Shown piece after piece: positions 1-49,488 of a stretch of DNA of 64,000 nucleotides. The notes below the pieces were generated by a model, which searched no databases, was not told where the DNA came from, and saw nothing but the letters and a program-made list of their open reading frames with translations. The translations under genes were made by a program, and so were the position numbers. Source of the stretch: Candidatus Brennerbacteria bacterium (lineage in GTDB: Bacteria > Patescibacteriota > Minisyncoccia > UBA6257 > GWB1-50-10); contig JACPEK010000006.1 of NCBI GenBank assembly GCA_016183535.1, forward strand, positions 38,015 through 102,014, written 5' to 3'. Within the stretch, counting starts at the first letter, position 1. Each line of letters opens with the position of its first letter.

Positions 1-870
1 CACCATGCGTCGCAACATCCTCCGTTTCGTCGCAGTGCGGAGTACGCGGTGGTCAGGGAAGTGAACCCAACCGAGGAAGTCCACGCCGGAAGCGAGGGTA
101 CAAATGGAAACTTTGTCGGGATGGAGGTCGAGTTTCAGCCGCTCCTTAAGAAAGGTGGTAAGTTCGGGAAGAATGTGCGCAAGCCGCGCACGGCCCTGCG
201 AAAGCACCGTAAAATCATCGGCGTAGCGGAGGTAATGTTTCACTTTGAGTTTGTGTTTTACGAATTGGTCAAATTCGTTCATGTATACGTTCACGAGAAG
301 CTGGGAGGTGAGGTTGCCGAGTGGCAGGCCTTTCCCCTCTGCGCCAGAGGAGAAACTTTCGATTATGCGCTTGAGAAACCACATAACGTTCTCGTCTTTA
401 ATACCTCTCTCAAGAATCTCGATGAGAATGGTGTGGTTAATACTCGCGAAGAATTTTCTCACGTCGCACTTGAGAACCCAACAGGTGCGGGTGTTGTTGC
501 TACTGACTTTGTATGCAAACGAGCGGAACCTATTTATAGCTCGGTGGGTTCCCTTCCCCACGCGGCATGAGAAAGAATCGGCGATGAACCTCCGGTCAAA
601 ATAAGGGTAGAGGACGCGGTAGGCGGCGTGGTGGAGGAGGCGGTCGCGGACGGTCGCTTTGTGGATGTTCCGCGGTTTGGGGTCAGTAATGTTGAAGGCG
701 CGGTAAGGCCCATGGCGATACCTGCCGCTCACGAGGTCGCGGTGGAGCGCGAAGATATTATCCATGAGTCGTAGACCGAACTCTTGCACGTCCGGCTTTC
801 CCCGTTTCCCGCGCAAAAATCCGCGCCACGCTTCGAGTAAGTTTTCGACGCTCGTGATATCCTCAAACAT
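1..870 (-). CDS. reverse transcriptase, DGR/retron-type; C-terminus runs off the window start (3'-partial)
   Basis: Minus-strand translation from ATG 870..868 gives MFEDITSVENLLEAWRGFLRGKRGKPDVQEFGLRLMDNIFALHRDLVSGRYRHGPYRAFNITDPKPRNIHKATVRDRLLHHAAYRVLYPYF... It continues through KCDVRKFFASINHTILIEIL, GLPLGNLTSQLLVNVYMNEFD, the catalytic LRYADDFTV (YADD codons at 214-228) and HPDKVSI..ASGVDFLGW, with no stop down to position 1. It is absent from the ORF track because it is open-ended. The plus-strand ORFs 49..570 and 245..604 are its antisense. Confidence 0.85.
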   Translation of the reverse strand, partial: MFEDITSVENLLEAWRGFLRGKRGKPDVQEFGLRLMDNIFALHRDLVSGRYRHGPYRAFNITDPKPRNIHKATVRDRLLHHAAYRVLYPYFDRRFIADSFSCRVGKGTHRAINRFRSFAYKVSSNNTRTCWVLKCDVRKFFASINHTILIEILERGIKDENVMWFLKRIIESFSSGAEGKGLPLGNLTSQLLVNVYMNEFDQFVKHKLKVKHYLRYADDFTVLSQGRARLAHILPELTTFLKERLKLDLHPDKVSICTLASGVDFLGWVHFPDHRVLRTATKRRMLRRMV

Positions 871-1254
871 ATGCAACCTATAACCCCCCCCCCCCGACGC
901 AATCAGCTGCCGGTAATCCAGAAACTGGTGGCGGCGTATAAACTGTGGCACGCGTTAGTACAAAATTTTCGCAGGACATCACGTTACACGCTCGGAGCAA
1001 AAATCGATTCCTTGCTTCTTGAGGTGATTGAAAACACCGTCGCCGCAAGTTACCTGCCTATCCATGAAAAATCATCCGTACTCGCGAAGTCAATCTCAAA
1101 ACTAGACTTCGTAAAGTTCTTTCTCGAGGTGGCGTGGGAAATAAAAGAATTGGACTCTAAGAAATACATCGCCGTTTCCGAAAAGCTTGATGAAGCGGGC
1201 CGCATGCTCGGCGGATGGAAAAAGGGCCTCGAAAAGAAAACTCTCGCTCAATAG
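871..1254 (+). CDS. avd: Avd-like accessory variability determinant (four-helix-bundle protein, TIGR02436-like)
   Basis: 127 aa. Resembles Bordetella-phage bAvd in pattern (e.g. ...KLDEAGRMLGGWKKG vs ...IAEVGRILGSWIARV). The start ATG directly abuts the divergent RT start (CATATG at 868-873). Contains a C12 homopolymer at 884-895 encoding TPPPR. Confidence 0.7.
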   Translation: MQPITPPPRRNQLPVIQKLVAAYKLWHALVQNFRRTSRYTLGAKIDSLLLEVIENTVAASYLPIHEKSSVLAKSISKLDFVKFFLEVAWEIKELDSKKYIAVSEKLDEAGRMLGGWKKGLEKKTLAQ

Positions 1255-1271
1255 GAGCGAGAGAAACAGTG

Positions 1272-1389
1272 AGTTTCGGGACCACGAGACGAAGCCTGCC
1301 CCCAGCGAACCACACGCTGCCGTCCTCAAGCCGGCGCACGCGCACCCTGAGCGCGCCGCCCGAGCGCACGAACACGTCAGCAACGAAGA
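1272..1389. repeat. DGR repeat copy A (118 bp), TR candidate; lies 18 nt after the avd stop
   Basis: Near-identical to 1709..1826: 115/118 identical. The differences are A1276 t / B1713 g, A1297 t / B1734 a, and A1345 c / B1782 a. Confidence 0.7.
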
Positions 1390-1620
1390 CAATATGTACG
1401 AGGAGCCGTCTGCGCCACCACCCGTCGAATGTTCTCCGGGTTGTATCGTATGCGGGACCTTGAAGTCCTCCAGCTCGCCGCACCAACTGGCTGTTTTTTG
1501 TTTTGAAAACCGCACCCACGCTTTTGCAAGACGTGTCCGGCAAAATTCTCGGATCCGATATTCAGCAACCGCCACTTGAAGCCGTAGCCGCAAGATAGTT
1601 CCGGATTGCACTTTTTACTG

Positions 1621-1662
1621 TACAAAAAATCCCTTAGATTCTCAAACGCGAGAGTCTAAGGG
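1621..1662 (-). terminator. hairpin plus T-run downstream of the candidate DGR target gene (possible DGR 3' hairpin/cruciform or rho-independent terminator)
   Basis: The plus strand reads cccttagattctc-aaacgc-gagagtctaaggg, a 13-bp stem with one G-U pair. On the minus strand it is followed by ATTTTTTGTA. Confidence 0.6.
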
Positions 1663-1701
1663 ATTAAAGAATTAAATAATCGATCACTAAAGCACAAAGC
1701 G

Positions 1702-2226
1702 TCAAGCCAGTTGCGGGACCACGAGACGAAGCCAGCCCCCAGCGAACCACACGCTGCCGTCCTCAAGCCGGCGCACGCGCAACCTGAGCGCGCCGCCCGA
1801 GCGCACGAACACGTCAGCAACGAAGAATTTCCCCTTCGATCGGAAGAGAAAAAACGTTCCGTAGCCGTCCGTGCGAAGCCAGCCGCGGTGCTTTCTGACA
1901 AAGTTCTTGATCTGGGACTGTGTGAGGCAGAGCTTGTTCAAATCGTTTGAAAGCGACCCGAACATTTGCGCGAACGTGGCATTCTGAACCATTTCGTAGA
2001 CGCTCGCGGGCGTCTCTCCCGTCGCAGAACCCGCCTCGTCGGCACCGTAGTTCACGAAATCGGAATCGATGTAGGTGAAAATGTCTGTTGCCTTCGCGAG
2101 CGTTTCCGATCCGTCAACGGCATCGAGAACGATCGAGGTACCGGCCGAAATCAGCTTCAGGAATGCGTGCTTCGCGCCGTTTGCAGCTGCCACCATGAGC
2201 TGGATCTCGTTCAATTTGCGTGCCAT
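1702..2226 (-). CDS. hypothetical protein, candidate DGR target (C-terminal ~38 aa encoded by repeat copy B)
   Basis: ORF 1702..2259 trimmed to M12 (MARKLNEIQLMVAAANG...), which is preceded by GGAGGTG 6 nt upstream. Codon usage is coherent. The C-terminus ...FVADVFVRSGGALRLRVRRLEDGSVWFAGGWLRLVVPQLA is encoded by the repeat. Confidence 0.55.
   Translation of the reverse strand: MARKLNEIQLMVAAANGAKHAFLKLISAGTSIVLDAVDGSETLAKATDIFTYIDSDFVNYGADEAGSATGETPASVYEMVQNATFAQMFGSLSNDLNKLCLTQSQIKNFVRKHRGWLRTDGYGTFFLFRSKGKFFVADVFVRSGGALRLRVRRLEDGSVWFAGGWLRLVVPQLA
1709..1826. repeat. DGR repeat copy B (118 bp), VR candidate; forms the 3' end of the minus-strand gene 1702..2226
   Basis: See copy A. The repeat ends about 5 nt before the stop codon of the 174-aa gene and is followed (on the minus strand) by a 13-bp hairpin. 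Confidence 0.7.
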
Positions 2227-2428
2227 GAGGCACCTCCATATATTTTGGCCACCCACCACTCCCTCGTTTGTTCGGGAGTATCGGGCTAGCCATTGTTAAT
2301 TTTGCTTTTCCATTATAGCACGCATCAATATAAAAGTCAAATTCCTGTCATGGTTCAATACCTTGTAATCACCTAGGGTATGAAGATGGCATATTCAACC
2401 AATCTTCCCTTTCCCCTTCCTCTGGCAC

Positions 2429-2464
2429 GGTGCTTCGATTAATCGAAGCACCTGTGGTATAATA
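2429..2464 (+). promoter_or_regulatory. 24-bp perfect palindrome (ggtgcttcgattaatcgaagcacc) abutting an extended -10 TGgTATAAT; putative operator/promoter of the yerC-like gene
   Basis: Perfect dyad at 2429-2452. TGGTATAAT is at 2455-2463, about 50 nt before the ATG at 2515. Confidence 0.5.
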
Positions 2465-2514
2465 AACAAGGTAACAAGGTTGATGGTACTACGAACAAAC
2501 CACAACATATAAAT

Positions 2515-2904
2515 ATGGTCCGGGTAAATAAAACCCAATTCCCCGTGAAGTTGAGGAGAGAGGCGCGGGAGCGTCTCCGACGCTTGCTCCACGGAACGGC
2601 TTCCGGCGAGGAACTTTTTCGCACTCTCGCGCAAATTCTCACGCCCATGGAGTTGCTCCTCATTGAGAAACGGCTCGCCATACCAATCCTTCTCGCGCGC
2701 GGCATGAGCTACCGCGAGATTGGGCGCACTATTGATGTGGGCCCTGCCGCCATCAGCTTCGTGAAACATCACCTCACGCGAAAGCCGAGGGTGCCGCGCC
2801 GTTACGACGCCCTCCCTCCGATTCGCAGGAGCAAGGAACACTGGATGGAAAAACAAAAGCGAGGCAAGAAACAATACTACATGGGCGTGAGAGTAGTTTG
2901 GTAA
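2515..2904 (+). CDS. TrpR-like / YerC-YecD family DNA-binding protein
   Basis: ...GEELFRTLAQILTPMELLLIEKRLAIPILLARGMSYREIGRTIDVGPAAISFVKHHL matches the TrpR/YerC helix-turn-helix pattern. Confidence 0.55.
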   Translation: MVRVNKTQFPVKLRREARERLRRLLHGTASGEELFRTLAQILTPMELLLIEKRLAIPILLARGMSYREIGRTIDVGPAAISFVKHHLTRKPRVPRRYDALPPIRRSKEHWMEKQKRGKKQYYMGVRVVW

Positions 2905-2930
2905 ATAGAGCAGATAAACCGCCATGTGCG

Positions 2931-2969
2931 AAACAAAAAACAAAGCGCTTCGATTAATCGAAGCGCTTT
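2931..2969 (-). terminator. rho-independent terminator of serS (28-bp perfect palindrome aaagcgcttcgattaatcgaagcgcttt followed by a T-run on the minus strand)
   Basis: It shares the 18-bp core gcttcgattaatcgaagc with the upstream palindrome at 2429-2452. Confidence 0.6.
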
Positions 2970-3005
2970 GTGCTGTCTCACCACTACCATTCCCCTTGCT
3001 TTTCC

Positions 3006-4262
3006 CTACTTTCCTATCTCCTTCTTCCCAAGATATGCTTGGAGCACTTTCGGGATCTTTACGGTGCCGTCCTTGGTTTGATTATTCTCAATGATCGCGA
3101 TTAAGGTGCGGCCGATCGCGAACGCGGTGCCGTTCAGCATGTGAGCGTACGCTTTCTCGCCGCTTTTTCTCTTCACTTTTACGTTCACCCCACGCGCCTG
3201 AAAATCGGTGGTGTTCGAGCACGACTGCGTCTCGCGATACGTTCCCTCGCTCGGAAACCACGTTTCGATGTCGAATTGACGCGCGTCGGTCCATCCCATG
3301 TCGCCTACGCAGATTTCGACAACGCGATACGGGAGTTCCAATTTCTGCATGAGTTCCTCCTGTCGATCGAGGAGGAAGCGGTGTTCTTTTTCCGACTCGG
3401 CGGGGTTGGCGAACGAAAACATCTCCACCTTGTCGAATTGGTGAACCCGCAAAATTCCTTTCGTATCTTTGCCGTAGCTCCCCGCCTCCCGCCGGAAGCA
3501 GGTAGAAAATCCGACGTATCGCCGCGGAAGCGATTGCTCGTCAAGCATCTCATCCATATGCAAGGGCCCCAAGGTGTGTTCCGCGCTCCCCACGAGGTAG
3601 AGATCATCCTTCGGAAGATAATACCGCTCTTCTTTCTGATCCGACGCGAGACGTCCCATGCCCATGAATACCTCGGGGCGTATCATTACCGGCGGCACCA
3701 CCGGCACAAAGCCGCGCGCGGTCAGAACCTCCATCGCGAGACGGACGAGCGCAAATTCGAGGAGCGCGCCGTCCCCCATGAGATACCCAAAGCGGCTTCC
3801 CGCGACCGTGGCGGCCCGCTTCACCTCGATCATCCCGAGCGGCTGGGCGATCGCAAGGTAGTCCTTCGGTTTGAAATCAAACCGCGGCTTTTCTCCGACT
3901 TCGCGAAGCGTCTTATTCCCCGACGCATCGAAACCGTCCAGCACGTCCGAAAACGGCGGATTCGGAAACTGTTCAAGAAGCACGGCCCGTTTTTTTTCGA
4001 CGTCCGCGAGCGACGCCGCCACCTCCGCGATGCGGTTCTTTAATATTTGCGCCTGCGAGAGAAGTTCCTCGCTTCTCGTCTCCGCGAGCGATTTCGACGC
4101 GGTCCTCTGTTCAGCCTGCAAAACATCAAGCGCCGCCCGTTTCGTGCGCCAGTTTTGGTCTACCCGCAGAAACTTTTCGACGAACTTCGGATCCACCCTC
4201 TTTCGTGCGAGGGCTCGCTTCGCGTCTTCCGGATTATCACGCAACCACTGAATATCAATCAT
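3006..4262 (-). CDS. serS: seryl-tRNA synthetase
   Basis: N-terminal coiled-coil plus the class II core; TCFRREAGSYGKDTKGILRVHQFDKVE motif. Confidence 0.95.
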   Translation of the reverse strand: MIDIQWLRDNPEDAKRALARKRVDPKFVEKFLRVDQNWRTKRAALDVLQAEQRTASKSLAETRSEELLSQAQILKNRIAEVAASLADVEKKRAVLLEQFPNPPFSDVLDGFDASGNKTLREVGEKPRFDFKPKDYLAIAQPLGMIEVKRAATVAGSRFGYLMGDGALLEFALVRLAMEVLTARGFVPVVPPVMIRPEVFMGMGRLASDQKEERYYLPKDDLYLVGSAEHTLGPLHMDEMLDEQSLPRRYVGFSTCFRREAGSYGKDTKGILRVHQFDKVEMFSFANPAESEKEHRFLLDRQEELMQKLELPYRVVEICVGDMGWTDARQFDIETWFPSEGTYRETQSCSNTTDFQARGVNVKVKRKSGEKAYAHMLNGTAFAIGRTLIAIIENNQTKDGTVKIPKVLQAYLGKKEIGK

Positions 4263-37899: not shown

Positions 37900-38388
37900 T
37901 TAAAATGCCGGCTGGAAACTAAGCACCACTCGCGACGCCTCGCCCCCGTCCGTTTTTTCAGCTGACGAACCTTTTGCCTCAATCGCAGCTTGATAAACCC
38001 TCTCCCGCGTGTCCGCGACCGTCCACGATCCCTCCCACACGCCGTCCGCGGCACTCCCCTCCTTCAAGGCGAGCGGAAATGGATGTTCACCCCCATCCAT
38101 AATCATGGTAACCTGCACCGATTCCACGAACCCCGCGTATCTCACCTTCACGCGCACACGCTGTTCCACTCCTTCCGCCACGCTCCCCAACGGATCAAAG
38201 CTCGCTTCGTAAATCTCGGGACCGGATTGATTACCACTCACGAAATAGGTATCGCGCTCCGGAAGCGGCGGAGCGGCGTTTCGTTCAGACAAAACCGGCG
38301 ACGTACCGCCGCGTCCGAAAAGAAAGATCGCCGCGCCGAGCGCAAGCGCGATAACGACCAAAATAATATTCTTCCGATCCACGTTCAT
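37900..38388 (-). CDS. small N-terminally anchored secreted protein, hypothetical
   Basis: One TM (IILVVIALALGAAIFLF), then about 130 aa of soluble sequence. Overlaps the neighbouring genes by 4 nt. Confidence 0.45.
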   Translation of the reverse strand: MNVDRKNIILVVIALALGAAIFLFGRGGTSPVLSERNAAPPLPERDTYFVSGNQSGPEIYEASFDPLGSVAEGVEQRVRVKVRYAGFVESVQVTMIMDGGEHPFPLALKEGSAADGVWEGSWTVADTRERVYQAAIEAKGSSAEKTDGGEASRVVLSFQPAF

Positions 38389-39542
38389 CGCTTCAAGAGC
38401 GTATCAAGGTTAAACCCTTCATGCGCGCCCGCCGCCGCGTTCGTCCACTCGCGCCAATCGAAGCGCGGGGCGGTCAGGCGGTAGCTCACTTCCAGCGAGC
38501 AATTTTCAATTTTCAATTTACAATTTTCAAAAAGAGAGGCGTAGATGGCGATGGTTTTGTTTTTATAATCTTTCTCATACCACGTCTTGCCGTCGAAGTT
38601 CGGCGTAAGAAGCACGGCAAGATTTGCAAATCCTTCTCCTTCAAGATTCGCCGCTTTCGCAAAAAGCCACAAGTCGGAACCCTCTTCGGCGGTTTTGAAA
38701 TCAAGAACGGCGGTTGGTAGTTGGTCGTTGGTCGTTGGTAGTTTAATAACGCCGGTGGTTTCTTCCTTCACCCCCGTCATGCCGGACACATAGGTGGCGT
38801 AGCGCTCTCCGCCGATCGTGTAAACCGGGTCAATCGTGCCCGCGTCGATTTTCCCCGACCCGCCGCCGAAGACCGCAACCAAGCTCGTCGTCGTGTTCCC
38901 CACGGACAAGAGGGCGGTTGGCGTCGAGGTTGCGATCCCGATCCTCCCCGTCGACGTGGCGATGGTGAGATAATCCGTCGAGCCGCTCCGCCGGATCACG
39001 AAGTTATTGACGTCGTTCGGGCCGTAGAACCATTGCTCGGTGCCGGAGGTGTCCTTCACGACGAGACCGCGATAATTTGTTGAGAGTCCCGAGAGGGTAA
39101 CAAGAGGGCCGGATGATCCGTCATACACATGGAACCGCGTGGCGGGACTCGCGGTGCCGACGCCGGCGCGCGCGTTCGTCGCGTCCACAAAGAGCACCGT
39201 GTTGGTGTTCCCCGATTCCTGAAACGTGTAGTTGCCCTTCCCCGCGATGGAGCCGAACACGCCCGCGGACACCTGGCCCGCCGAAACCGATGAGGCGCCC
39301 GCGCTCGTCTGGGAGGTGCCGTCCCCGAACTTCAGCGTACTATCCACATAGAGCACCCCCGCCGCCTGCGGCGTCGTGGTGCCGACCGAAAGACCGCCTA
39401 AAACGGTGGTGGTCGAGGCGTTCTGGATGCGGTAGGTGCCGCCGAAATCAAAATCGTTCTGCACACTGATCGCGTATACGAAAGACGCGAGTCCGAGGAA
39501 GAGTACAAGTGCGGCCGCGGCGAGATAGATTTTCGAGGTCAT
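38385..39542 (-). CDS. surface repeat protein, paralog of 42505..45450 (shared [RN]xG[IV][GA]T[ST]xP repeats and a conserved C-terminal domain ending RFDWREW)
   Basis: ORF trimmed to MTSKIYLAAAALVLF. The C-terminal roughly 130 aa, IDPVYTIGGERYATYVSG...YRLTAPRFDWREWT, aligns with the C-terminus of the 981-aa protein. Confidence 0.55.
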   Translation of the reverse strand: MTSKIYLAAAALVLFLGLASFVYAISVQNDFDFGGTYRIQNASTTTVLGGLSVGTTTPQAAGVLYVDSTLKFGDGTSQTSAGASSVSAGQVSAGVFGSIAGKGNYTFQESGNTNTVLFVDATNARAGVGTASPATRFHVYDGSSGPLVTLSGLSTNYRGLVVKDTSGTEQWFYGPNDVNNFVIRRSGSTDYLTIATSTGRIGIATSTPTALLSVGNTTTSLVAVFGGGSGKIDAGTIDPVYTIGGERYATYVSGMTGVKEETTGVIKLPTTNDQLPTAVLDFKTAEEGSDLWLFAKAANLEGEGFANLAVLLTPNFDGKTWYEKDYKNKTIAIYASLFENCKLKIENCSLEVSYRLTAPRFDWREWTNAAAGAHEGFNLDTLLKR

Positions 39543-39592
39543 AGGTTGCTTGGTGGTATTATACCATTCCCTTCTTTCCTTCTTTTTTATTT

Positions 39593-40210
39593 TTACCGAT
39601 TCACCACGAGCTTGCCGGCATCGCCCTTGCCGCATCCCTCAACACATTCAAACGCATACTCGCCGTAGGGATACGCCTGGAACTGGAAAACCGCCGTTTC
39701 ACCGCGCTTGACGCTTCGGTAGACGCCGAAGTCGGGAAAGCGGATCGCGTAGTCGCGGTCGGCCGCGGTAAAGGAAAAATCCACCACGTCGAGCTCGTTC
39801 ACCGCAACTAAGGACGGCGAGAGGTTGCCATCTTCACCGCGGAATGCGAACTTCCGAAGCATGACGTCTCCCACCTTCTGCACGGCGAACGGCACCGCGA
39901 TTTCGGAAGGTGCGGCGACTCTCGCCGTGGCATTCACGTCGGTAACAAACGCCGAGGTTTTGATCTTCTCCCGCGTGCCGCCCTCCACCGTCTTTAAGGC
40001 GTTCGCGTTGCCCGGGCGGAACACATCCTCGCCGCGCGCTTCGCCCGTCGGGCCGAATTCGCCCCTCCGCGGCCCGCTCGTGTTGTAGAAAGAAATTGCG
40101 ATGGCCGCGAGCGCCACCACGGCCGCAACGCCGCCCACCCATTTTATCTTGCCGCCCCGTTTTTCCGACGCGGGCGTTTCTTGCTCCATCACTCCGTCCA
40201 TGGTTGTCAT
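39593..40210 (-). CDS. membrane-anchored cupredoxin-like domain protein (paralog 1 of 3)
   Basis: N-terminal TM plus C-terminal GEYAFECVEGCGKGDAGKLVV, which fits the cupredoxin_1 / EfeO-N-like G-Y-F-C...G-h-V pattern. Confidence 0.5.
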   Translation of the reverse strand: MTTMDGVMEQETPASEKRGGKIKWVGGVAAVVALAAIAISFYNTSGPRRGEFGPTGEARGEDVFRPGNANALKTVEGGTREKIKTSAFVTDVNATARVAAPSEIAVPFAVQKVGDVMLRKFAFRGEDGNLSPSLVAVNELDVVDFSFTAADRDYAIRFPDFGVYRSVKRGETAVFQFQAYPYGEYAFECVEGCGKGDAGKLVVNR

Positions 40211-42504: not shown

Positions 42505-45450
42505 TTATTTGATGATGAGCGAAGGCCGCTCCGTTTGATCGGGCGCCAACGTCGGCCACTCTCGCCAGTCGAAGCGATTGCCGACGAGGCGATAGCTGAA
42601 CTCGATAGAATCAGTGGTTGGTGGTTGGTGGTTGGTGGTTGGTTGGGAACGGAAGATTATTTTGTTTCCGGAAATTTCGTAGGCGATGGAAACGGGGACG
42701 CCGTAGGGAGTGGCAAGCACTTGAACGGTGTCGCGGCTGAAGTCAACGGTCTTCCGCCACACCCACAAATCTGAACCGCTTTTTATCTTGTCGAAGTCGA
42801 TGACATACTCGTAGGTCGGTTCGGTAAACTCGAAACCTTTTGAATTTTGAGATTTCGGATTTGTTTCGGATTTCGGATTTCGGATTTCGGATTTGCGGAC
42901 GAGCGTAGCGCGGCCGACATATTCTTCCTTCACCCCTCCCGCGATGGCAGAAGCGTAGGTCGCGTATTTTTTCCCTCCGATCTCATAGAGCGGGTCGATG
43001 GTGGTGACCGTAAGCTTGTTCACGCCGGTGATGTTTTTCGAGTTCGCGTTGAGGTTGGTAACAAGCGCGCCGCCGAAGGAGAGGTTGCCATTCAAGGTGG
43101 AGGTGCCGGAGACGGTGAGCGTGGTGAAGCTCCCCGCGCCGCCGCCGCCCGTCACCGCGGAGTCCACGTAATCCTTCGTCGCCGCATGGGAAGCTTGTGT
43201 CGGCGTCCCCACGATCACCGGCTGGGAGAAGTAGCCGGTACCCGCGACGGTCAGGGCGTAGCCCGGCGTGGTCGAGGCGATACCGAAATTGTTGCCGGTG
43301 TTGAGGTAGCTCGCGCCGTTCGTGTCGAAGGTGATTTCGACACCTCCGTTCTCGAAAAGTTGGAAGTAGCCCGGGTCGCTCCCTCCCGCTTCTGCGAATT
43401 TTGCATACACATTCCCTTGATTTCCTGTAAGTTGAAGGTCGGGGTTGCCGCCGCCATTTTTGATATACACTCCTCCGGTCGGGGTCGCGCCTCCTTGAAT
43501 TTCGAGTTTGTACCCCGGACTCGCCGTCCCGATGCCGACCGAATCGCCGGAGGTCGTGAGAGAGACGTTCGCGCCGCTGTCGGTCCAACCGCTCCCGCTC
43601 GTTACCGTGGAGTCCACATAACTTTTCGTCGCGGCGTGGGAATTCGCGGTCGGGGTGCCGACAATCACCGGCTGGGAGAAGTAGCCGGCACCGACGGTCG
43701 TTAAAACATAGCCGGGAGACGAAGACGCGATGCCGATGTTGCCGGTCGCATTGATATGAAATCTCACGTCCGTGGTATTGCCGGTCGCAATCGAAAACAA
43801 GTCCTGTGATTTGATTACCAAGTCGTTCGGCCCACCGCCACCCTGCAAACCGATATCGTCATTTGCGGCAATCTGTCCCGCCAGTGTCGTATCCGCTCCG
43901 TCGTAGATATCAATCCGGTTGCCGAAGCGGGTCGCGCCTTTCACGTGGAGTTTCTGTTGGGGGTTCGTCGTTCCGATGCCGACGTTCCAACTTGTGGAAG
44001 ACGCGTAGAGATTTGAGCCGGAAAGCAACCACACGCCGCTCGAGCCGGAAGCGACGGAGTCCACATACGACTTCGTCGCCGCGCTCGTGCCTGTCGTCGG
44101 TGTGGGAACGGTAAGCTGACCCGTAAATCTCCCCGTGCCCACCACGTCGAGCGTATAGGCGGGAGTGGTGGTGGCGATCCCGACGTTGCCCGAGCTATCC
44201 ATCACCAAACTGTTCGCCGTTCCGGCGGTATTGATAGTAAATTTGTCGGCGCTGTGGCTATAGATAATCCTCCCGCGATACGCCTGATCGCCGGTCGTCC
44301 CGTCGGCGAAAAGTATGGAGCCGTCGCCCGCGCTGTAGATGGTAAGTCCTTGCGAACCGGCGCCGGAGCCCACTACGAGCTGATTCGCCGATGAGTCGAG
44401 TGAGGACGCGGGCGCGGTACCTACGGAAACCAAGCCGTTCACCTGCAAAGCGCTTGCGGGAGTGGTGGTCCCGATACCGACGTTGCCGGCTCCCGTAAGA
44501 GTCATGACTGTCTTTCCCCCAATAGTACTTGCGGCATCTCCCTGTTTCCACAAAGAGAAAATTATTTTGTTTCCGCCCGCAACCCCAGAATCATGTTCTG
44601 TGGTTATCATATGGGCATAATCGGTAGTGCCGTTATATCCGAAAACAATCTGCCGACCTCCCTGACTGCCGGTATTATCCATTCCCGACCTCAAAATAAG
44701 CGCATTAGTTGAGATTGTTGAAACAACATCAAGCTTTCCACTCGGACTCGTCGTCCCGATACCGACGTTGCCTTTGACATACAAACCCTCGGTGGGAAGC
44801 CCGCCCGTCGTCGTGGTCCCCACCGCGAGCGAAGCGGGAAACGCGAAATTCCCGTTTCCCTGCAAGCTCCCGAAGACGCCGGACGAGACATTCGCCGCGG
44901 AAAGCCCGCCCGAGAGCGTACCCACAAAAGCGCCGGTTGTCTGCACATTCCCTCCGACGAAAAGACGCGCGACGCCGCCCGTCGAGGTCGCTTTCTGCCC
45001 GATCGCCACATCACCGTACTGGTTCACGTCGAGCACCACATAGCCCGGAAGCGTGGCCGACTCGCGGTAGAGCTGGAGGTTGCCGAAGTTTCGCGACGAC
45101 CACACATAGGTGTTCCCCGACGTGAGGTTTTTGAGAGAAAGTCCGGGGTTCGTGGTCGAGGCCACCGTGAACACATACCCGAAGGTGGAGGGCCCGCTCT
45201 CGGTCGAGGTCGAGTTGAAAGTCGAAACCGGCGTCGAGGACGAGGCGCCGAAACCGATGTTCCGGTTCGCGTCCACCTGGAAGAGCCCGCCGCCCGAGCC
45301 GGGGGTTTGACCCGCAGACGGCCCGATAAAAGCGAATGCTATAGGCGCAACCGATATTTCAAATATCAAACACCACAAGAAAAACAGCCCAGTTTTTGAA
45401 AAGGAAAGATAGTTTTTAATTTTTAATTTTTGAATTTTATAAATAAACAC
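42505..45450 (-). CDS. large secreted fibre/adhesin-like repeat protein (981 aa) with at least 7 NVGIGTTxP...L[DE]V.G repeats, a conserved C-terminal domain, and two in-frame heptanucleotide repeat tracts
   Basis: Signal peptide present. Repeats include NVGIGTTSPSGKLDV, NVGIGTTTPASALQV, NVGIATTTPAYTLDVVG, NVGIGTTNPQQKLHVKG, NIGIASSSPGYVLTTVG and SVGIGTASPGYKLEIQG. The C-terminus ...IDPLYEIGGKKYATYASA...YRLVGNRFDWREWPT is shared with the 416-aa paralog. Confidence 0.6.
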   Translation of the reverse strand: MFIYKIQKLKIKNYLSFSKTGLFFLWCLIFEISVAPIAFAFIGPSAGQTPGSGGGLFQVDANRNIGFGASSSTPVSTFNSTSTESGPSTFGYVFTVASTTNPGLSLKNLTSGNTYVWSSRNFGNLQLYRESATLPGYVVLDVNQYGDVAIGQKATSTGGVARLFVGGNVQTTGAFVGTLSGGLSAANVSSGVFGSLQGNGNFAFPASLAVGTTTTGGLPTEGLYVKGNVGIGTTSPSGKLDVVSTISTNALILRSGMDNTGSQGGRQIVFGYNGTTDYAHMITTEHDSGVAGGNKIIFSLWKQGDAASTIGGKTVMTLTGAGNVGIGTTTPASALQVNGLVSVGTAPASSLDSSANQLVVGSGAGSQGLTIYSAGDGSILFADGTTGDQAYRGRIIYSHSADKFTINTAGTANSLVMDSSGNVGIATTTPAYTLDVVGTGRFTGQLTVPTPTTGTSAATKSYVDSVASGSSGVWLLSGSNLYASSTSWNVGIGTTNPQQKLHVKGATRFGNRIDIYDGADTTLAGQIAANDDIGLQGGGGPNDLVIKSQDLFSIATGNTTDVRFHINATGNIGIASSSPGYVLTTVGAGYFSQPVIVGTPTANSHAATKSYVDSTVTSGSGWTDSGANVSLTTSGDSVGIGTASPGYKLEIQGGATPTGGVYIKNGGGNPDLQLTGNQGNVYAKFAEAGGSDPGYFQLFENGGVEITFDTNGASYLNTGNNFGIASTTPGYALTVAGTGYFSQPVIVGTPTQASHAATKDYVDSAVTGGGGAGSFTTLTVSGTSTLNGNLSFGGALVTNLNANSKNITGVNKLTVTTIDPLYEIGGKKYATYASAIAGGVKEEYVGRATLVRKSEIRNPKSETNPKSQNSKGFEFTEPTYEYVIDFDKIKSGSDLWVWRKTVDFSRDTVQVLATPYGVPVSIAYEISGNKIIFRSQPTTNHQPPTTDSIEFSYRLVGNRFDWREWPTLAPDQTERPSLIIK
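42615..42642. repeat. (TGGTTGG)x4 perfect heptanucleotide tandem repeat inside the coding sequence (encodes QPTTNHQPPTT)
   Basis: Read directly from the sequence; an imperfect homolog lies at 38713..38740 in the paralog. Confidence 0.9.
42864..42891. repeat. (TTTCGGA)x4 heptanucleotide tandem repeat, plus degenerate flanking copies, inside the coding sequence (encodes KSEIRNPKSETNPKS)
   Basis: Read directly from the sequence. Confidence 0.9.
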
Positions 45451-45853
45451 TTAGAATTTTTAAACACTGCAGTTTTTGGAAATTTTAGCGAAGATTAACG
45501 TCAATTCGTGCGCTTCTTTCCAAAGATTTTTGCATTCTTCCTTTCTAACCTGATTAGCCGCCGCAATCATACGGAGCCAGTGTTTCGTTTCATTCGATTC
45601 TTTTTGTGAAATTCTTATTTTATTCCTAAAATCTTTCTTTGAGCTCGCCTGATTCGCTTCCATATAGTTAGCCCCGATGCTCGTAGCGGATCTCACGACT
45701 TGATCTATAAGCGACCTGTTTATGGAATTGCCGGGTAATTCTTTTGCGAAGTTTATCACATTCTCCCCAAATCTAGCCGATCTTTCCTCCAGGTCGTAAT
45801 TCATCAGGTTTAGAAATTAAAACATTAAAATTTATTTATAAAATTCAAAAATT
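45425..45853. mobile_element. AT-rich island bounded by a 23-bp perfect inverted repeat (aatttttgaattttataaataaa) carrying a four-helix-bundle protein gene
   Basis: Left arm 45425-45447, right arm 45831-45853 (reverse complement). The cargo ORF is 45460..45804. Confidence 0.5.
45460..45804 (-). CDS. four-helix-bundle protein (TIGR02436 / 23S rRNA intervening-sequence protein family; Avd homolog)
   Basis: ERSARFGENVINFAKELP...IDQVVRSATSIGANYMEANQASSKKDFRNKIRISQKESNETKHWLRM follows the family pattern. The gene is AT-rich. Confidence 0.7.
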   Translation of the reverse strand: MNYDLEERSARFGENVINFAKELPGNSINRSLIDQVVRSATSIGANYMEANQASSKKDFRNKIRISQKESNETKHWLRMIAAANQVRKEECKNLWKEAHELTLIFAKISKNCSV

Positions 45854-45864
45854 GGAAATTCACT

Positions 45865-46389
45865 TTACGGCAACACAATAAGTTGTCCCATTATCTTCGC
45901 TCCGGCCGGGCAAGAGTCGCGACACTCAAACCGGTACGTTCCCGCGGCGGTGGTCTGAAAACTCACCTGCTTCGTCTCCCCTTTCACCACTTTCTGGTAG
46001 AGCCCGCTCCATGGCATCGAGAAATCGTAGTCGCCGTCCTCTGCGGTGAGGCGAATCTGCACAAGATTGCCGAGCTTCACCGTCAAGGTCGAGGGGGCAA
46101 AGCCGTTGCGCGACACCGTCATTTCGAAGATGCCGAGCGTTTCCTCCCTCCCGGGCGCCGCGGGCGCCTCGATGGCGGGGGGTGTTTCCACCGCGTTTTC
46201 AGGCACCTCGGAGGTATACGCGGACGTTTCGAGTGAAACTGCCCCGCTCCCTTCCGTTTCCTCCTCCGCGCTCCCCGCCGGCCCCGCGCCTTCCGGCCCC
46301 GCGTCCCGCCCGGAAAACGCCCCGATGATCGCAACGAGCGCGATAAAACCCCCGAGTGCCGCGAGAATAATAAGTTGTTTGCGCGTCAT
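45865..46389 (-). CDS. membrane-anchored cupredoxin-like domain protein (paralog 3 of 3)
   Basis: TM plus GTYRFECRDSCPAGAKIMGQLIVLP. Confidence 0.5.
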   Translation of the reverse strand: MTRKQLIILAALGGFIALVAIIGAFSGRDAGPEGAGPAGSAEEETEGSGAVSLETSAYTSEVPENAVETPPAIEAPAAPGREETLGIFEMTVSRNGFAPSTLTVKLGNLVQIRLTAEDGDYDFSMPWSGLYQKVVKGETKQVSFQTTAAGTYRFECRDSCPAGAKIMGQLIVLP

Positions 46390-46484
46390 TCAAATAATTA
46401 TAGCAAGTTTAAACGGCTCATGGGTCGAATAAGTCCCATGGGCCGTATGGGACTTATAAGCCGAGGTGATATAAAATAAGAGAG

Positions 46485-47444
46485 ATGCGAGGAATAAAAA
46501 TTGCTTTCTGGATCCTTATTGCGATTGTCCTTTCCCTCACGGCATTTGCCGCGCTCCGCGCCGGCGCCGCGACGAATGTTTCCTCCGCCTCAAACGAGCG
46601 CCTCGCGTGGGACGATGAGAATGGCTGGTGGGACTTCTACAGTACAAACACAGTAACAATCTACGGCACGCGCCTCGAGGGCTACGCCTCGTCCACAGTC
46701 GGCGATCTTTCGCTCGATTGCGCCACGACCGCTTCCGGCAACGTTTGCGCCTCGTCGAACTACGGCGTCTGCAATGGGCCGGGGCCGCATGCGACGGACG
46801 GCGCCTGCGCGTCGGGCGACGCCTCGGGCGATCTCACGGGGTACGCGTGGAACGACGCCATGGGATGGGTGAGCTTTAATTGCAACCAATCCTCGCACGG
46901 CGGCGCGAATAACTGTGTATCGTCGAACTATAAAGTTTCGATCGACGCGAACGGCAACTTCTCGGGCTACGCATGGAACGATGTCGCGGGATGGTTAAGT
47001 TTTAACTGCGCGGACGCGGGCGGAAGCTCGTGCGGCGACTCTAACTACAAGGTAATCACCTCATGGCGGGCCACTTCCACTTTCGCCTATCTCGAATCGT
47101 CGGTCTTCGACACGGAGCGGAGTGAGGGCGGCGCACTCCAGAGCATCGTCTGGCAAGGTTCGCAACCTTCCGGCGCCTCGGTGGATTTCCAGATCGCGAC
47201 TTCGAGCTCCTCTTCCGGGCCGTGGACGTTCTACGGCCCCGGCGGAAGCTCCGTCGCATATTATGGAGCGGAGTGTCCGCTCTCGGGTATTGCATCGCCC
47301 GGCGCGGGTCCCGACAAAGCGATTTGCGTGGATAAAAATGCGGGCGCGGCGCGCTATCTGCGGTATAAAATACGACTGCGGTCGAATCTGCTTCAGACAC
47401 AAACGCCGAGCGTTGATGACGTCATTCTCATTTGGACGAGATAG
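46485..47444 (+). CDS. secreted repeat protein (three G[YW]AWND..GW[VL]SFNC repeats), hypothetical
   Basis: Signal peptide present. Repeats at GWWDFYS, GYAWNDAMGWVSFNCNQ and GYAWNDVAGWLSFNCAD. Confidence 0.5.
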   Translation: MRGIKIAFWILIAIVLSLTAFAALRAGAATNVSSASNERLAWDDENGWWDFYSTNTVTIYGTRLEGYASSTVGDLSLDCATTASGNVCASSNYGVCNGPGPHATDGACASGDASGDLTGYAWNDAMGWVSFNCNQSSHGGANNCVSSNYKVSIDANGNFSGYAWNDVAGWLSFNCADAGGSSCGDSNYKVITSWRATSTFAYLESSVFDTERSEGGALQSIVWQGSQPSGASVDFQIATSSSSSGPWTFYGPGGSSVAYYGAECPLSGIASPGAGPDKAICVDKNAGAARYLRYKIRLRSNLLQTQTPSVDDVILIWTR

Positions 47445-47493
47445 GATTAGTTGATTAGTTACGCTACGCTTTAGTTGATTAGTTTCCAAAAAA

Positions 47494-47865
47494 ATGCCAA
47501 CCGGACTGGAAAATCTCAAAATTTATCAACTAGCAAAAGAGCTCGAGCTTGAGATTCATCAAGCCACCAAAAAATTCCCAATAGAAGAAAGATGGAGAAG
47601 TGTCGATCAGCTGAACCGCTCGGCCGCAGCCGTTTCAAACAATATCGCGGAGGCATATCATAAACTTTCAGTCATCCAGAGGGAGCACATATTACGAAAC
47701 ATCGCTATCGGGGAAGCTGAAGAAACAAAACGAAATATTGAACGTTGTTCAATGAAAACGTTTATTTCCAAAACAACTGCTGATGATATTGCTAATCGCT
47801 ATACAAGTCTTATTAAAGGCGTATATGGTTATATTCGATTTCTCAAAAACCAATCAACTAATTAA
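47494..47865 (+). CDS. four-helix-bundle protein (TIGR02436-like; Avd homolog), second copy
   Basis: LKIYQLAKELELEIHQATKKFPIEERWRSVDQLNRSAAAVSNNIAEAY. AT-rich. Flanked by imperfect inverted repeats (attagttgattagtt at 47446-47460 and 47471-47484; aaccaatcaactaatt at 47849-47864). Confidence 0.7.
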   Translation: MPTGLENLKIYQLAKELELEIHQATKKFPIEERWRSVDQLNRSAAAVSNNIAEAYHKLSVIQREHILRNIAIGEAEETKRNIERCSMKTFISKTTADDIANRYTSLIKGVYGYIRFLKNQSTN

Positions 47866-47867
47866 CT

Positions 47868-49322
47868 ATGCTCAAACTCTACAACACCCTGACTCGCAAA
47901 AAAGAAATCTTCCGGCCGCTCGTGAAAGGTAAGGTTGGGCTCTACACCTGCGGGCCTACCGTCTACCATTACGCGCACATCGGAAACCTGCGCACCTATA
48001 TTTTTGAGGATATCCTTGAGCGCGCGCTCACCCGAAACGGCTACGAGGTAAAGCGCGTGATGAACGTGACGGACGTGGGACACCTCACCTCGGACGCCGA
48101 CCTTGGCGAAGACAAACTGGAAAAGGGGGCAAAGCGCGAGAAGAAATCACCGTGGGACACCGCGAAATTTTATACCAAGGCGTTCCTCGCAGATCTGAAA
48201 AAACTCAACATCAAAAAACCGGAGTGCGTCGCGCCCGCCACGAAATACGTTTCGGAACAGATTGGGTTGATCGAGCGTCTCTTCGCGCGGGGCTACGCGT
48301 ACGAAACGCCGCAGGCGGTGTATTTCGATATAAGCAAGTTTGCAAATTATGGCAAACTGTCAAACACGAATTATGCGAATAGAAAAGCGCGAATGAACAC
48401 GAGTGGAAGGCATGGAAGAGCCGAGGTGGTGGAGGATCCGAAAAAACGGCATCGCGAGGACTTCGCACTGTGGTTCAAGCGCGTGGAACGCTTCAAACAC
48501 CACATCATGCACTGGAGCTCACCCTGGGGCTTGGGGTTCCCGGGGTGGCACATTGAGTGCTCGGCGATTTCTTCCGCGCTTCTGGGTCAGCCGTTCGACA
48601 TCCACACGGGAGGCGTGGACCATATCGCGGTGCACCACACGAACGAGATCGCACAATCCGAAGGCGCCTATGGAAAACCGCTCGCGCGTTACTGGATGCA
48701 CGGCGAGTTTTTGAACATGAGCGGCGGCAAAATGGCAAAATCATCCGGCGCGTTCGTCACGCTCGCCGACATGGAGAAAAAGAGATTCGATCCACTCGCC
48801 TACCGCTACTTCGTCCTCGGCGCGCATTACCGCACCCCGCTTACGTTCACGTGGACCGCGCTCCACGGCGCGGCGAACGCGCTCGAAAAACTGAAACGCA
48901 TAGTGGCAACGCTCAAAGCGACGCCACAAATCAACGCGAATAAAAAAACGCGGACTAGCACGGATAAAATTTACCGATCTTATATGAAACGGTTCAATGA
49001 GGCGATCGCGGACGATTTGAACACCCCACGGGCACTCGCGGCGCTCTGGAGCGCGGCGAATGACGCCAAGCTCACGTCGAAAGAAAAACTCGCACTCCTC
49101 CTCTCTTACGACGAAGTGCTGGGGTTTGGTTTCAAAGAGGTGAGGAAGTCTGCCCCCGTTCCACCCTCCATTCTCAAACTCGTCGAGGAGCGGGAGTTAT
49201 ACCGGCGTAATAAACAGTTTGATAAGGCAGACACCTTGCGGGCGCGCGTCGACGGGTTAGGATACACGATAGCAGACGCCCCTTCCGGGCCAGAAGTCCG
49301 AAAGGAAAATTCTAAATCCTAA
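47868..49322 (+). CDS. cysS: cysteinyl-tRNA synthetase
   Basis: HIGN (HYAHIGNLRTY) and KMAKSSG (KMSKS) class I motifs; zinc-binding Cys; DALR-type C-terminus. Confidence 0.93.
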   Translation: MLKLYNTLTRKKEIFRPLVKGKVGLYTCGPTVYHYAHIGNLRTYIFEDILERALTRNGYEVKRVMNVTDVGHLTSDADLGEDKLEKGAKREKKSPWDTAKFYTKAFLADLKKLNIKKPECVAPATKYVSEQIGLIERLFARGYAYETPQAVYFDISKFANYGKLSNTNYANRKARMNTSGRHGRAEVVEDPKKRHREDFALWFKRVERFKHHIMHWSSPWGLGFPGWHIECSAISSALLGQPFDIHTGGVDHIAVHHTNEIAQSEGAYGKPLARYWMHGEFLNMSGGKMAKSSGAFVTLADMEKKRFDPLAYRYFVLGAHYRTPLTFTWTALHGAANALEKLKRIVATLKATPQINANKKTRTSTDKIYRSYMKRFNEAIADDLNTPRALAALWSAANDAKLTSKEKLALLLSYDEVLGFGFKEVRKSAPVPPSILKLVEERELYRRNKQFDKADTLRARVDGLGYTIADAPSGPEVRKENSKS

Positions 49323-49488
49323 TATCTAAATCCTAAATACCGATTTTATCGAGTATCCTCGACGCAGTCGGGACAAATTCGAAATCCAAAATCCGAATGT
49401 TCCAAACGTTTCGGGTTTAGTATTTTGAACATTGGGATTTGTTTATGGTTTAGGATTTCGGATTTAGAGTTTAGAGTTTTATTTTTCT

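Follow-up and report, generated by a model that had tools for sequence, protein, structure and literature searches.

Two loci around 45 to 48 kb in a 64,000-nt stretch of a genome from Candidatus Brennerbacteria, bacteria of the Candidate Phyla Radiation (CPR, or Patescibacteria), each carry (contig JACPEK010000006.1; hereafter the window) a gene for a small four-helix-bundle protein between inverted arrays of short tandem repeats. On balance, we consider it probable that both are selfish cassettes of the intervening sequence (IVS) type known from ribosomal RNA (rRNA) genes: a hairpin of inverted heptamer arrays holds the four-helix-bundle gene in its loop, lies in sense orientation at the junction between one gene's stop codon and the next gene's start codon, and is co-transcribed. 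Each cassette is a discrete unit with sharp edges of homology at the ends of its arms. It keeps an AT-rich composition of its own, and miniature relatives lacking the open reading frame (ORF) exist. Syntenic relatives in which sites are empty, with spacers of 1 to 2 nt, or in which different subtypes occupy one junction, indicate that the cassettes are gained as units. Several phyla have the same combination of a gene with heptamer arrays in inverted orientation, one instance being a true rRNA IVS.

Anatomy of the two cassettes

The first-pass annotation of this DNA had described both ORFs as four-helix-bundle genes of the TIGR02436 family, and profile searches bear this out. Proteins 1 and 2 matched PF05635 with 70.5 bits (E = 1.7e-19) and 71.7 bits (E = 6.7e-20; cut-off, 33.8) and TIGR02436 with 83.9 bits (E = 8e-24) and 66.9 bits (E = 1.6e-18; cut-off, 24). 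PF05635 was the sole match reported for either at E <= 0.01, with none to PF22296 (bAvd). By sequence, protein 1 matched PDB entry 2RLD (E = 2e-16) and protein 2 matched 2GSC (E = 7e-4), each of which contains five chains. An AlphaFold2 model of protein 1 (pLDDT, 94.4) consists of four helices and has the fold of the 2RLD/2GSC type; Foldseek matched it to 2RLD (TM, 0.81), 2GSC (0.84), Avd (4DWL; 0.75), and 8UB7, a ribonucleoprotein of a diversity-generating retroelement (DGR).

The perfect 23-bp inverted repeat reported earlier around gene 1 (45425-45447 and 45831-45853) is indeed perfect, is unique within the window, and had no chance match in 100 shuffles. It forms the core of a 30-nt inverted repeat of 93% identity (45418-45447 and 45831-45860), and the two flanks of the gene, of ~47 and ~57 nt, are mostly complementary along their length. 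The 3' arm has a period of 7, with 3.6 copies at 45413-45438 (Tandem Repeats Finder). When the window was compared with ~70 metagenome loci by BLASTN, the alignment was confined to 45413-45860 and the flanks were unrelated. Cassette 1 matched positions 2-457 of the 459 positions of an nhmmer profile built from 39 loci, 38 other loci share a conserved 5' arm that aligned with its own, and the unit length in its family is ~450 bp. The stop codon of the neighboring cupredoxin gene (45865-45867) lies ~4 nt outside the 5' arm. Coordinates of both cassettes are given in Table 1.

Table 1. Cassette features and the ORF-less hairpin in the window
Feature	Position	Strand	Evidence or remark
Cassette 1, whole unit, 449 bp (5' arm, four-helix-bundle ORF, 3' arm)	45413-45861	minus	nhmmer, BLASTN, RNA fold
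Cassette 1, 5' arm	45805-45861	minus	AATTTT(T/G)-type heptamer array, AAATAAA, then AATTTCTAAAC immediately 5' of ATG
Four-helix-bundle gene 1, 114 aa	45460-45804	minus	PF05635, TIGR02436, fold model
Cassette 1, 3' arm	45413-45459	minus	Reverse complement of 5' arm; perfect repeat 45425-45447
GTG, sole plausible start remaining for 981-aa surface protein (ORF 42505-45450)	45448-45450	minus	Inside cassette 1
Cassette 2, whole unit, GATTAGTT arms	~47445-47869	plus	
Cassette 2, 5' arm	47445-47493	plus	GATTAGTT-type repeats, two 14-nt copies; begins 1 nt past stop of 319-aa gene
Four-helix-bundle gene 2, 123 aa	47494-47865	plus	PF05635, TIGR02436, PDB 2GSC by sequence
Cassette 2, 3' arm	47847-47869	plus	Overlaps last codons of its own ORF; abuts or overlaps cysS ATG at 47868
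ORF-less hairpin element, AAATCCT / TTTAGGA heptamer arrays	49301-49485	plus	Fills cysS-dnaB spacer (49323-49488, 166 nt)

Around gene 2, imperfect inverted repeats with a duplicated left arm had been described, and both features were recovered. The motif TTAGTTGATTAGTT has two direct copies (47447-47460 and 47471-47484, 100% each) and one inverted copy with a single mismatch (47848-47861); four matches were observed against 0.05 expected. The inverted repeats pair 47446-47460 with 47848-47862 and 47448-47460 with 47856-47868, and the 5' arm has a period of 8 at 47445-47460 (Tandem Repeats Finder). One detail needed correction: 2 nt, not 3 nt, separate the gene 2 stop at 47865 from the cysS ATG at 47868. 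The AT-richness noted for the two genes was confirmed (GC content, 0.403 for gene 1 and 0.387 for gene 2, versus 0.571 for the window). No further copies of the arm sequences were found within the 64 kb.

When folded as RNA, the ends of cassette 1 close into a terminal stem in both the minimum free energy and centroid structures (z = -3.1), as do those of cassette 2 (z = -1.6), where the predicted stem takes in both the stop codon of the upstream gene and the start of cysS. A consensus promoter scan returned weak 9-of-12 matches only, and neither cassette had one on the sense strand of its 5' arm. The absence of a convincing sense promoter from the 5' arms fits read-through from the upstream gene.

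Empty and occupied junctions in relatives

Syntenic relatives were reached through homologues of the cupredoxin gene. A search of genome contigs with CysS gave a best match of 59% identity, of no use for synteny, and exact look-up returned no match for protein 2 and a duplicate contig only for protein 1. The relatives compared at these junctions are close, with DnaB 88-94% identical and CysS and the 319-aa protein 70-80% identical. The first-pass annotation had suggested looking for empty sites, and such sites were found, with the sequence TAA-C-ATG at one junction and TAA-TC-ATG at another (Table 2).

Table 2. Occupants of three junctions in the window and in syntenic relatives
Contig	Cupredoxin/surface protein	319-aa gene/cysS	cysS/dnaB
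Window	Cassette 1, AATTTTT arms	Cassette 2, GATTAGTT arms	AAATCCT/TTTAGGA hairpin
L162	Cupredoxin gene not at this place	Cassette 2 orthologue, gene 82% identical	71-nt ORF-less hairpin with GATTAGTT-type arms, as in its own cassette
L163	Junction not comparable	Cassette 2 orthologue 5' of cysS, gene 68% identical; upstream gene CorA	101-nt AATTTTT-type miniature; second miniature at dnaB/recR
L171	154-aa four-helix-bundle gene without 5' arm	Different four-helix-bundle gene (50% identity to protein 1) with CAATTTT arms	No spacer; gene calls overlap
L172-L174	Empty, TAA-C-ATG	Third four-helix-bundle gene, 37% identical to protein 1, GGAAAAT/ATTTTCC arms	107-nt ORF-less hairpin with GGAAAAT arms, the type of its own cassette
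L175	Empty, TAA-C-ATG	Empty, TAA-TC-ATG	None; genes overlap

In relatives with an empty cupredoxin junction, the surface protein begins with ATG-AAA or ATG-AAG 1 nt past the cupredoxin stop codon (MKK... or MKSAR...). The window has no such native ATG; its ORF runs on as VFIYKIQKLKIKNYLSFSK across the 3' arm of cassette 1, which would thus encode the lysine-rich n-region preceding the hydrophobic core of the surface protein's signal peptide. The apparent loss of the native start codon to cassette 1 favors insertion over deletion at this junction. Between the 319-aa gene and cysS, three four-helix-bundle lineages were found that share just 23-42% identity with one another. Such distant occupants in close genomes fit independent gain or replacement and do not fit vertical divergence.

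Cassette 2 itself is kept 5' of cysS in relatives whose DnaB is just 70-90% identical, its 5' arm is retained in L162, and it is AT-rich in both L162 and L163. Judged by this distribution, cassette 2 is evidently no recent arrival, and its AT-richness in diverged relatives is a lasting, intrinsic property of the cassette rather than a mark of recent transfer.

The neighboring cysS-dnaB spacer is filled by an ORF-less hairpin (Table 1) whose arms form a 37-nt inverted repeat of 76% identity, with a period of 7 on both sides (49307-49338 and 49449-49479; Tandem Repeats Finder) and an RNA fold of z = -4.16. Its 5' arm overlaps the end of cysS and supplies the last codons and the stop. About 17 further ORF-less hairpins of the AATTTTT type were detected within 545 kb of CPR loci, with their arms joined where the ORF would stand, so that the hairpin looks like the basic unit and the gene like something carried in its loop.

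Three further observations concern these junctions and their repeats. At the cupredoxin junction of L171 (4621-5085), the 154-aa PF05635 gene is of the NIAEG type, with 8 nt between the upstream stop and its ATG and a local hairpin downstream; as it lacks a 5' arm, inverted arrays are not universal among members. In L163 (4400-5845), CysS is ~40% identical to that of the window, yet DnaB is 71% identical, and the order four-helix-bundle gene, cysS, dnaB, recR is kept, which suggests that cysS was replaced in situ. Elsewhere in the window, four tandem CAATTTT heptamers (38500-38530) form a single arm for which no inverted partner was found. They lie within a 416-aa ORF (38385-39635, minus strand), read as LFENCKLKIENCS ~40 codons before its end, and may be what is left of a hairpin element that became part of a coding region.

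The wider family and known systems

In 90%-identity clusters, more than 5,700 relatives share at least ~70% identity with protein 1, and those with names come from many CPR lineages; among 50%-identity cluster representatives, its relatives number 7,904 (E <= 1e-3). A metagenome scan yielded 80 loci, about 50 of them non-redundant, and in these the DNA homology stops where the repeats end on the outside. In almost all 80, the gene lies between inverted AATTTTT arrays built from AATTTTTAATTTT(T/G/A)TAATTTTTAAATAA. A multiple alignment and the nhmmer profile delimit a unit of 435-500 bp, in which 3-5 tandem heptamers are followed by AAATAAT, by AATTTTTAAAC adjoining the ATG, by the ORF, and by the reverse complement of the 5' flank. 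Flank-to-flank repeat scores were mostly 13-34 for cassettes; for control ORFs of the same loci, the median score was 8 and the 95th percentile 10.

Placement of the unit is similarly regular. A gene on the same strand ends 0-36 nt (mostly 5-10 nt) 5' of the cassette in ~34 of 38 loci, and an ATG on the same strand follows 2-15 nt past the 3' end in most loci that have a downstream gene on that strand. Neighbors on the opposite strand numbered two per side only among the about 50 non-redundant loci. Cassette GC was below flank GC in all 51 loci compared (by 11 points on average) and correlated with host GC (r = 0.68). For the less saturated gene pairs, dN/dS ranged from 0.04 to 0.27 (median, 0.125), whereas over all pairs synonymous sites are saturated (median pS, 0.83). 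This low dN/dS, indicative of purifying selection, argues that the four-helix-bundle protein is functional. Furthermore, the arms keep the same heptamer across divergence, which points to a constraint on arm sequence beyond complementarity.

Three pairs of contigs (L135/L141, L093/L099, and L151/L155) carry cassettes that are 99.8-100% identical within flanks that are 80-93% identical, and the tract of identity ends at or near the cassette ends; L135 and L141 differ by a 20-nt repeat-number indel in the 5' arm. This pattern suggests that the cassette alone was recently exchanged in the three pairs. At another locus, L094, two copies scored 330.5 and 228.8 bits against the family profile and showed ~73-76% and 68-70% DNA identity, respectively, to third loci.

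One locus type stands apart in its context: in L106 (3949-4404; also in L107 and L110-L112), a cassette of the AATTTTT type lies between tRNA genes with anticodons CAT and CTT, and hence in a stable-RNA precursor, like an rRNA IVS. L106 and L112 were considered as one element in two contexts and rejected as such, since the shared block takes in both flanking tRNA genes.

To look beyond the CPR, plasmids were searched by tblastn and ten loci of cultured bacteria annotated as "four helix bundle protein" were read (Table 3). Eight of the ten exceeded the control 95th percentile for flank-to-flank repeat score. The copy in Azospirillum is a true IVS, and its heptamer, GACAGAA, is nearly that of Coxiella, GACAGAT. 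On plasmids of Nostoc, Planktothrix, Monoglobus, and Pseudanabaena, the cassettes lie inside defence operons.

Table 3. Four-helix-bundle loci of cultured bacteria
Host (locus)	Repeats	Context
Nostoc (L176)	Inverted GTAAAAA arrays	Between cas2 and cas1; cassette on strand opposite to both
Bernardetia (L177)	Mainly direct-orientation repeats	Between fabH and peptidase gene
Planktothrix (L178)	Inverted AATCGTA / AATCCCC arrays	Between DISARM drmD and BREX pglX
Tolypothrix (L179)	Inverted GGGGAGCA arrays	Between vapC toxin gene and integrase gene
Treponema (L180)	Inverted GTGGAAA-type arrays	Between DMT transporter gene and DUF4832 gene
Azospirillum lipoferum (L181)	Inverted GACAGAA / TCTGTCT arms	Inside 23S rRNA gene (Rfam LSU 283-3276)
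Monoglobus (L182; clostridial)	Inverted TAATTAGGAA-type arms	Pseudogene between hsdS and hsdR
Leptolyngbya (L183)	Inverted GGGGAGA arrays	3' of DUF499 gene
Euhalothece (L184)	CACTGGT, 13 tandem copies on one side	Near DNA methylase gene
Pseudanabaena (L185)	Mainly direct-orientation repeats	Between csx2 and cas1

IVSs of rRNA interrupt the 23S (or 16S) gene, usually at helix 9, 25, or 45. The cassettes resemble the ORF-bearing 23S IVSs of Leptospira and Coxiella burnetii in their size of ~430-450 nt, in the PF05635 ORF carried in the loop, in pairing termini of at least 23-28 bp, in tandem heptamers before the start codon, in a weak or absent Shine-Dalgarno sequence, and in a GC content below that of the host. 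At 428-444 nt, the IVS of Coxiella has a terminal stem of 28 bp, is excised by RNase III, carries tandem GACAGAT heptamers 5' of the S23p start codon, and has a GC content of 36% in a genome of 42.5% (PMC4990558). Unlike IVSs of the 23S gene, the cassettes lie between protein-coding genes (at one locus, between tRNA genes) and not in rRNA; Rfam found no rRNA and one tRNA only in the window, where both cassettes separate protein-coding genes. Purifying selection acts on the cassette protein, in contrast to the decaying ORF of Coxiella, and RNase III excision, which is known for the Coxiella IVS, is a presumed step for the cassettes. The first-pass annotation had proposed IVS-derived elements relocated outside rRNA; the anatomy bears out the likeness to IVSs, but the copies in rRNA may be the special case.

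Correia/NEMIS and ERIC-type elements are likewise small and bounded by inverted repeats and, as proposed for the cassettes, are co-transcribed from the transcribed spacers into which they are inserted; they have fixed termini, a TA duplication, and no gene, and Correia stems are substrates of RNase III. The ORF-less hairpins resemble these elements. The cassettes differ from them in that their arms are heptamer arrays that vary by subtype, in that no duplication was seen, and in that many copies carry a conserved gene. Tandem 7-nt intergenic units are also shared with the short tandemly repeated repetitive (STRR) sequences of cyanobacteria and the arrays of Xanthomonas, and arrays of this kind flank the cassettes of Planktothrix and Nostoc. 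The heptamer arrays of Xanthomonas (GGGAATC) and Nostoc are intergenic, often occur as convergent (inverted) pairs, vary in length among strains, and have no known function (PMC4692102). In that paper, the terms "S23" and "intervening" led to no link between the arrays and S23p/four-helix-bundle genes or rRNA IVSs. In the literature, from a search that left out most subscription journals, we found no link of PF05635/S23p genes to heptamer or inverted repeats outside rRNA or in the CPR.

Proposed mechanism and alternative explanations

In the mechanism that we propose by analogy with rRNA IVSs and Avd, a cassette would lack a promoter of its own and be transcribed with the host gene string. Its arms would pair, drawing the upstream stop and downstream start together, and the resulting double-stranded RNA stem would be cut by RNase III as in rRNA IVSs, with the result that the insertion would be tolerated. 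The protein, if pentameric, may bind the hairpin or the heptamer arrays as Avd binds an RNA stem-loop; a protein that binds the arms would help to maintain or spread the cassette. Avd, a basic pentamer, grips an RNA stem-loop with all five of its protomers (bioRxiv 10.1101/2023.10.23.563531), and the idea that an IVS ORF might serve the mobility of the element goes back to Ralph and McClelland (recorded in PMC4990558).

Several observations weigh against our reading of the cassettes as mobile, co-transcribed RNA hairpins. A wobble test did not reveal any selection for sense-RNA pairing: mismatches of the G-U type and the A-C type numbered 53 and 48 in AATTTTT arms and 32 and 51 in other subtypes. 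Pairing could therefore act in DNA, or the arms could merely be inverted arrays of binding sites. One arm may have far more repeats than the other, as in Euhalothece. Cassette 2 has held one site through long divergence, so that mobility is at best episodic, and no near-identical copies turned up in clearly different contexts, the pair L106/L112 being the sole candidate. Co-orientation with neighbors is partly expected where genomes have long co-directional gene strings, and the signal of identical elements in diverged flanks could partly stem from the assembly of repeats in metagenomes.

The first-pass annotation had likened the islands to MITEs (miniature transposable elements with inverted repeats) with cargo. 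As classical MITEs, they would be DNA transposons cut and pasted through their terminal inverted repeats by a transposase from elsewhere, with the four-helix-bundle gene as a passenger. Part of this description stands: the cassettes are small, discrete units with terminal inverted repeats and no transposase inside, they appear to be gained whole, being present or absent at orthologous sites, and they have ORF-less derivatives. The rest found no support. No target-site duplication was seen between occupied and empty junctions, where native spacers are 1-2 nt and arm ends are fuzzy by one repeat unit, and a duplication of the start-codon context at both ends was inconsistent across the aligned loci. 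Termini are not shared, since the arms differ wholly by subtype (AATTTTT, CAATTTT, GGAAAAT, GATTAGTT, GACAGAA, and others) and track the inner gene rather than a common enzyme. Orientation is nearly always sense to the neighbors, the supposed passenger is under strong purifying selection, and no transposase-like ORF stood out in gene calls beside the cassettes, in which no screen was aimed at transposases. Collectively, the lack of a duplication, the subtype-specific arms, the fixed orientation, and the conserved gene make a classical transposase-driven MITE less likely, and we regard it as an unlikely explanation. The opposite view, that these are ordinary resident genes whose complementary flanks are untranslated regions regulating or stabilizing their own mRNA, would account for the synteny of cassette 2 in L162 and L163, for purifying selection on the protein, and for the tracking of host GC by element GC (r = 0.68). 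The empty sites with their 1-2-nt spacers contradict a purely resident gene, as do the three unrelated subtypes at one junction in close relatives; the ORF-less hairpins at neighboring junctions, the downstream start codon lost to cassette 1, and element identity above flank identity also speak against it. We judge this explanation to be quite improbable.

Two functional alternatives seem very improbable to us. One is that the proteins are spare Avd subunits for a DGR at the start of the window. The fold is homologous to that of Avd (TM, 0.75 to 4DWL, for the protein 1 model), and a DGR-like locus is present at 871-2259. There, ORF 871-1254 matches PF22296 (bAvd) and not PF05635, and it adjoins a 118-nt direct repeat (1272-1389 and 1709-1826; 97% identical) resembling the template and variable repeats (TR and VR) of DGRs, the second copy of which overlaps the 3' end of ORF 1702-2259 (minus strand). 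Of the three mismatches between the copies, two coincide with minus-strand adenines in the first copy. The first 3 kb of the window showed no reverse transcriptase (RT), which may lie past the window edge. The match to PF22296 and the TR/VR-like repeat mark ORF 871 as a DGR accessory gene, and the earlier count of this ORF as a third copy of the cassette gene was rejected on these grounds, as its product and proteins 1 and 2 are only ~22% identical to each other when aligned. The DGR thus has an Avd of its own, in a Pfam family other than PF05635, whereas the cassette genes lie 44-46 kb away, with no RT, TR, or VR near 45-48 kb. The same cassettes also occur in many contexts in which no RT stood out in gene calls, the loci not having been screened for one. 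The other alternative is a defence, anti-defence, or addiction module, in which invading or host nucleic acid would be the target of the protein and the repeats would serve as its regulatory sites. It draws on the genes found in cas2/cas1, csx2/cas1, DISARM drmD-BREX pglX, and type I hsdS/hsdR operons of cultured bacteria. In the CPR the neighbors are housekeeping genes (L1, cysS, dnaB, and tRNAs) and surface proteins, and defence operons may merely tolerate insertions. We keep to the reading of both loci as IVS-type cassettes.

A wider proposal goes beyond the two loci, and we put it forward as possible, though doubtful. S23p-type genes with inverted heptamer hairpins would form one mobile class spanning phyla, taking in the ORF-bearing rRNA IVSs, many STRR/heptamer inverted repeats, and thousands of CPR junction cassettes. 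The Avd-like pentamer would drive sense-oriented insertion into transcribed spacers by recognizing its own arrays, possibly through an RNA or single-stranded intermediate, and the ORF-less hairpins would be non-autonomous passengers.

For some 30 years, rRNA IVS ORFs, the S23p family, and heptamer arrays have stood as separate unexplained curiosities; here, they are tied together as one gene-plus-hairpin module. The cassettes are best read as IVS-type elements outside rRNA, with the four-helix-bundle gene between inverted heptamer arrays across the family. For annotation, this means that the start codons and N-termini of neighboring genes can come from cassette arms and that such AT-rich islands are no evidence of recent transfer. 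The likeness to Avd suggests that the protein may bind the repeat hairpin of its own cassette, in the way that Avd holds an RNA stem-loop. The module invades the tightest intergenic junctions of streamlined CPR genomes, where both empty and occupied sites are clear, and it offers a route to study how a 450-nt insert is tolerated between translationally coupled genes.

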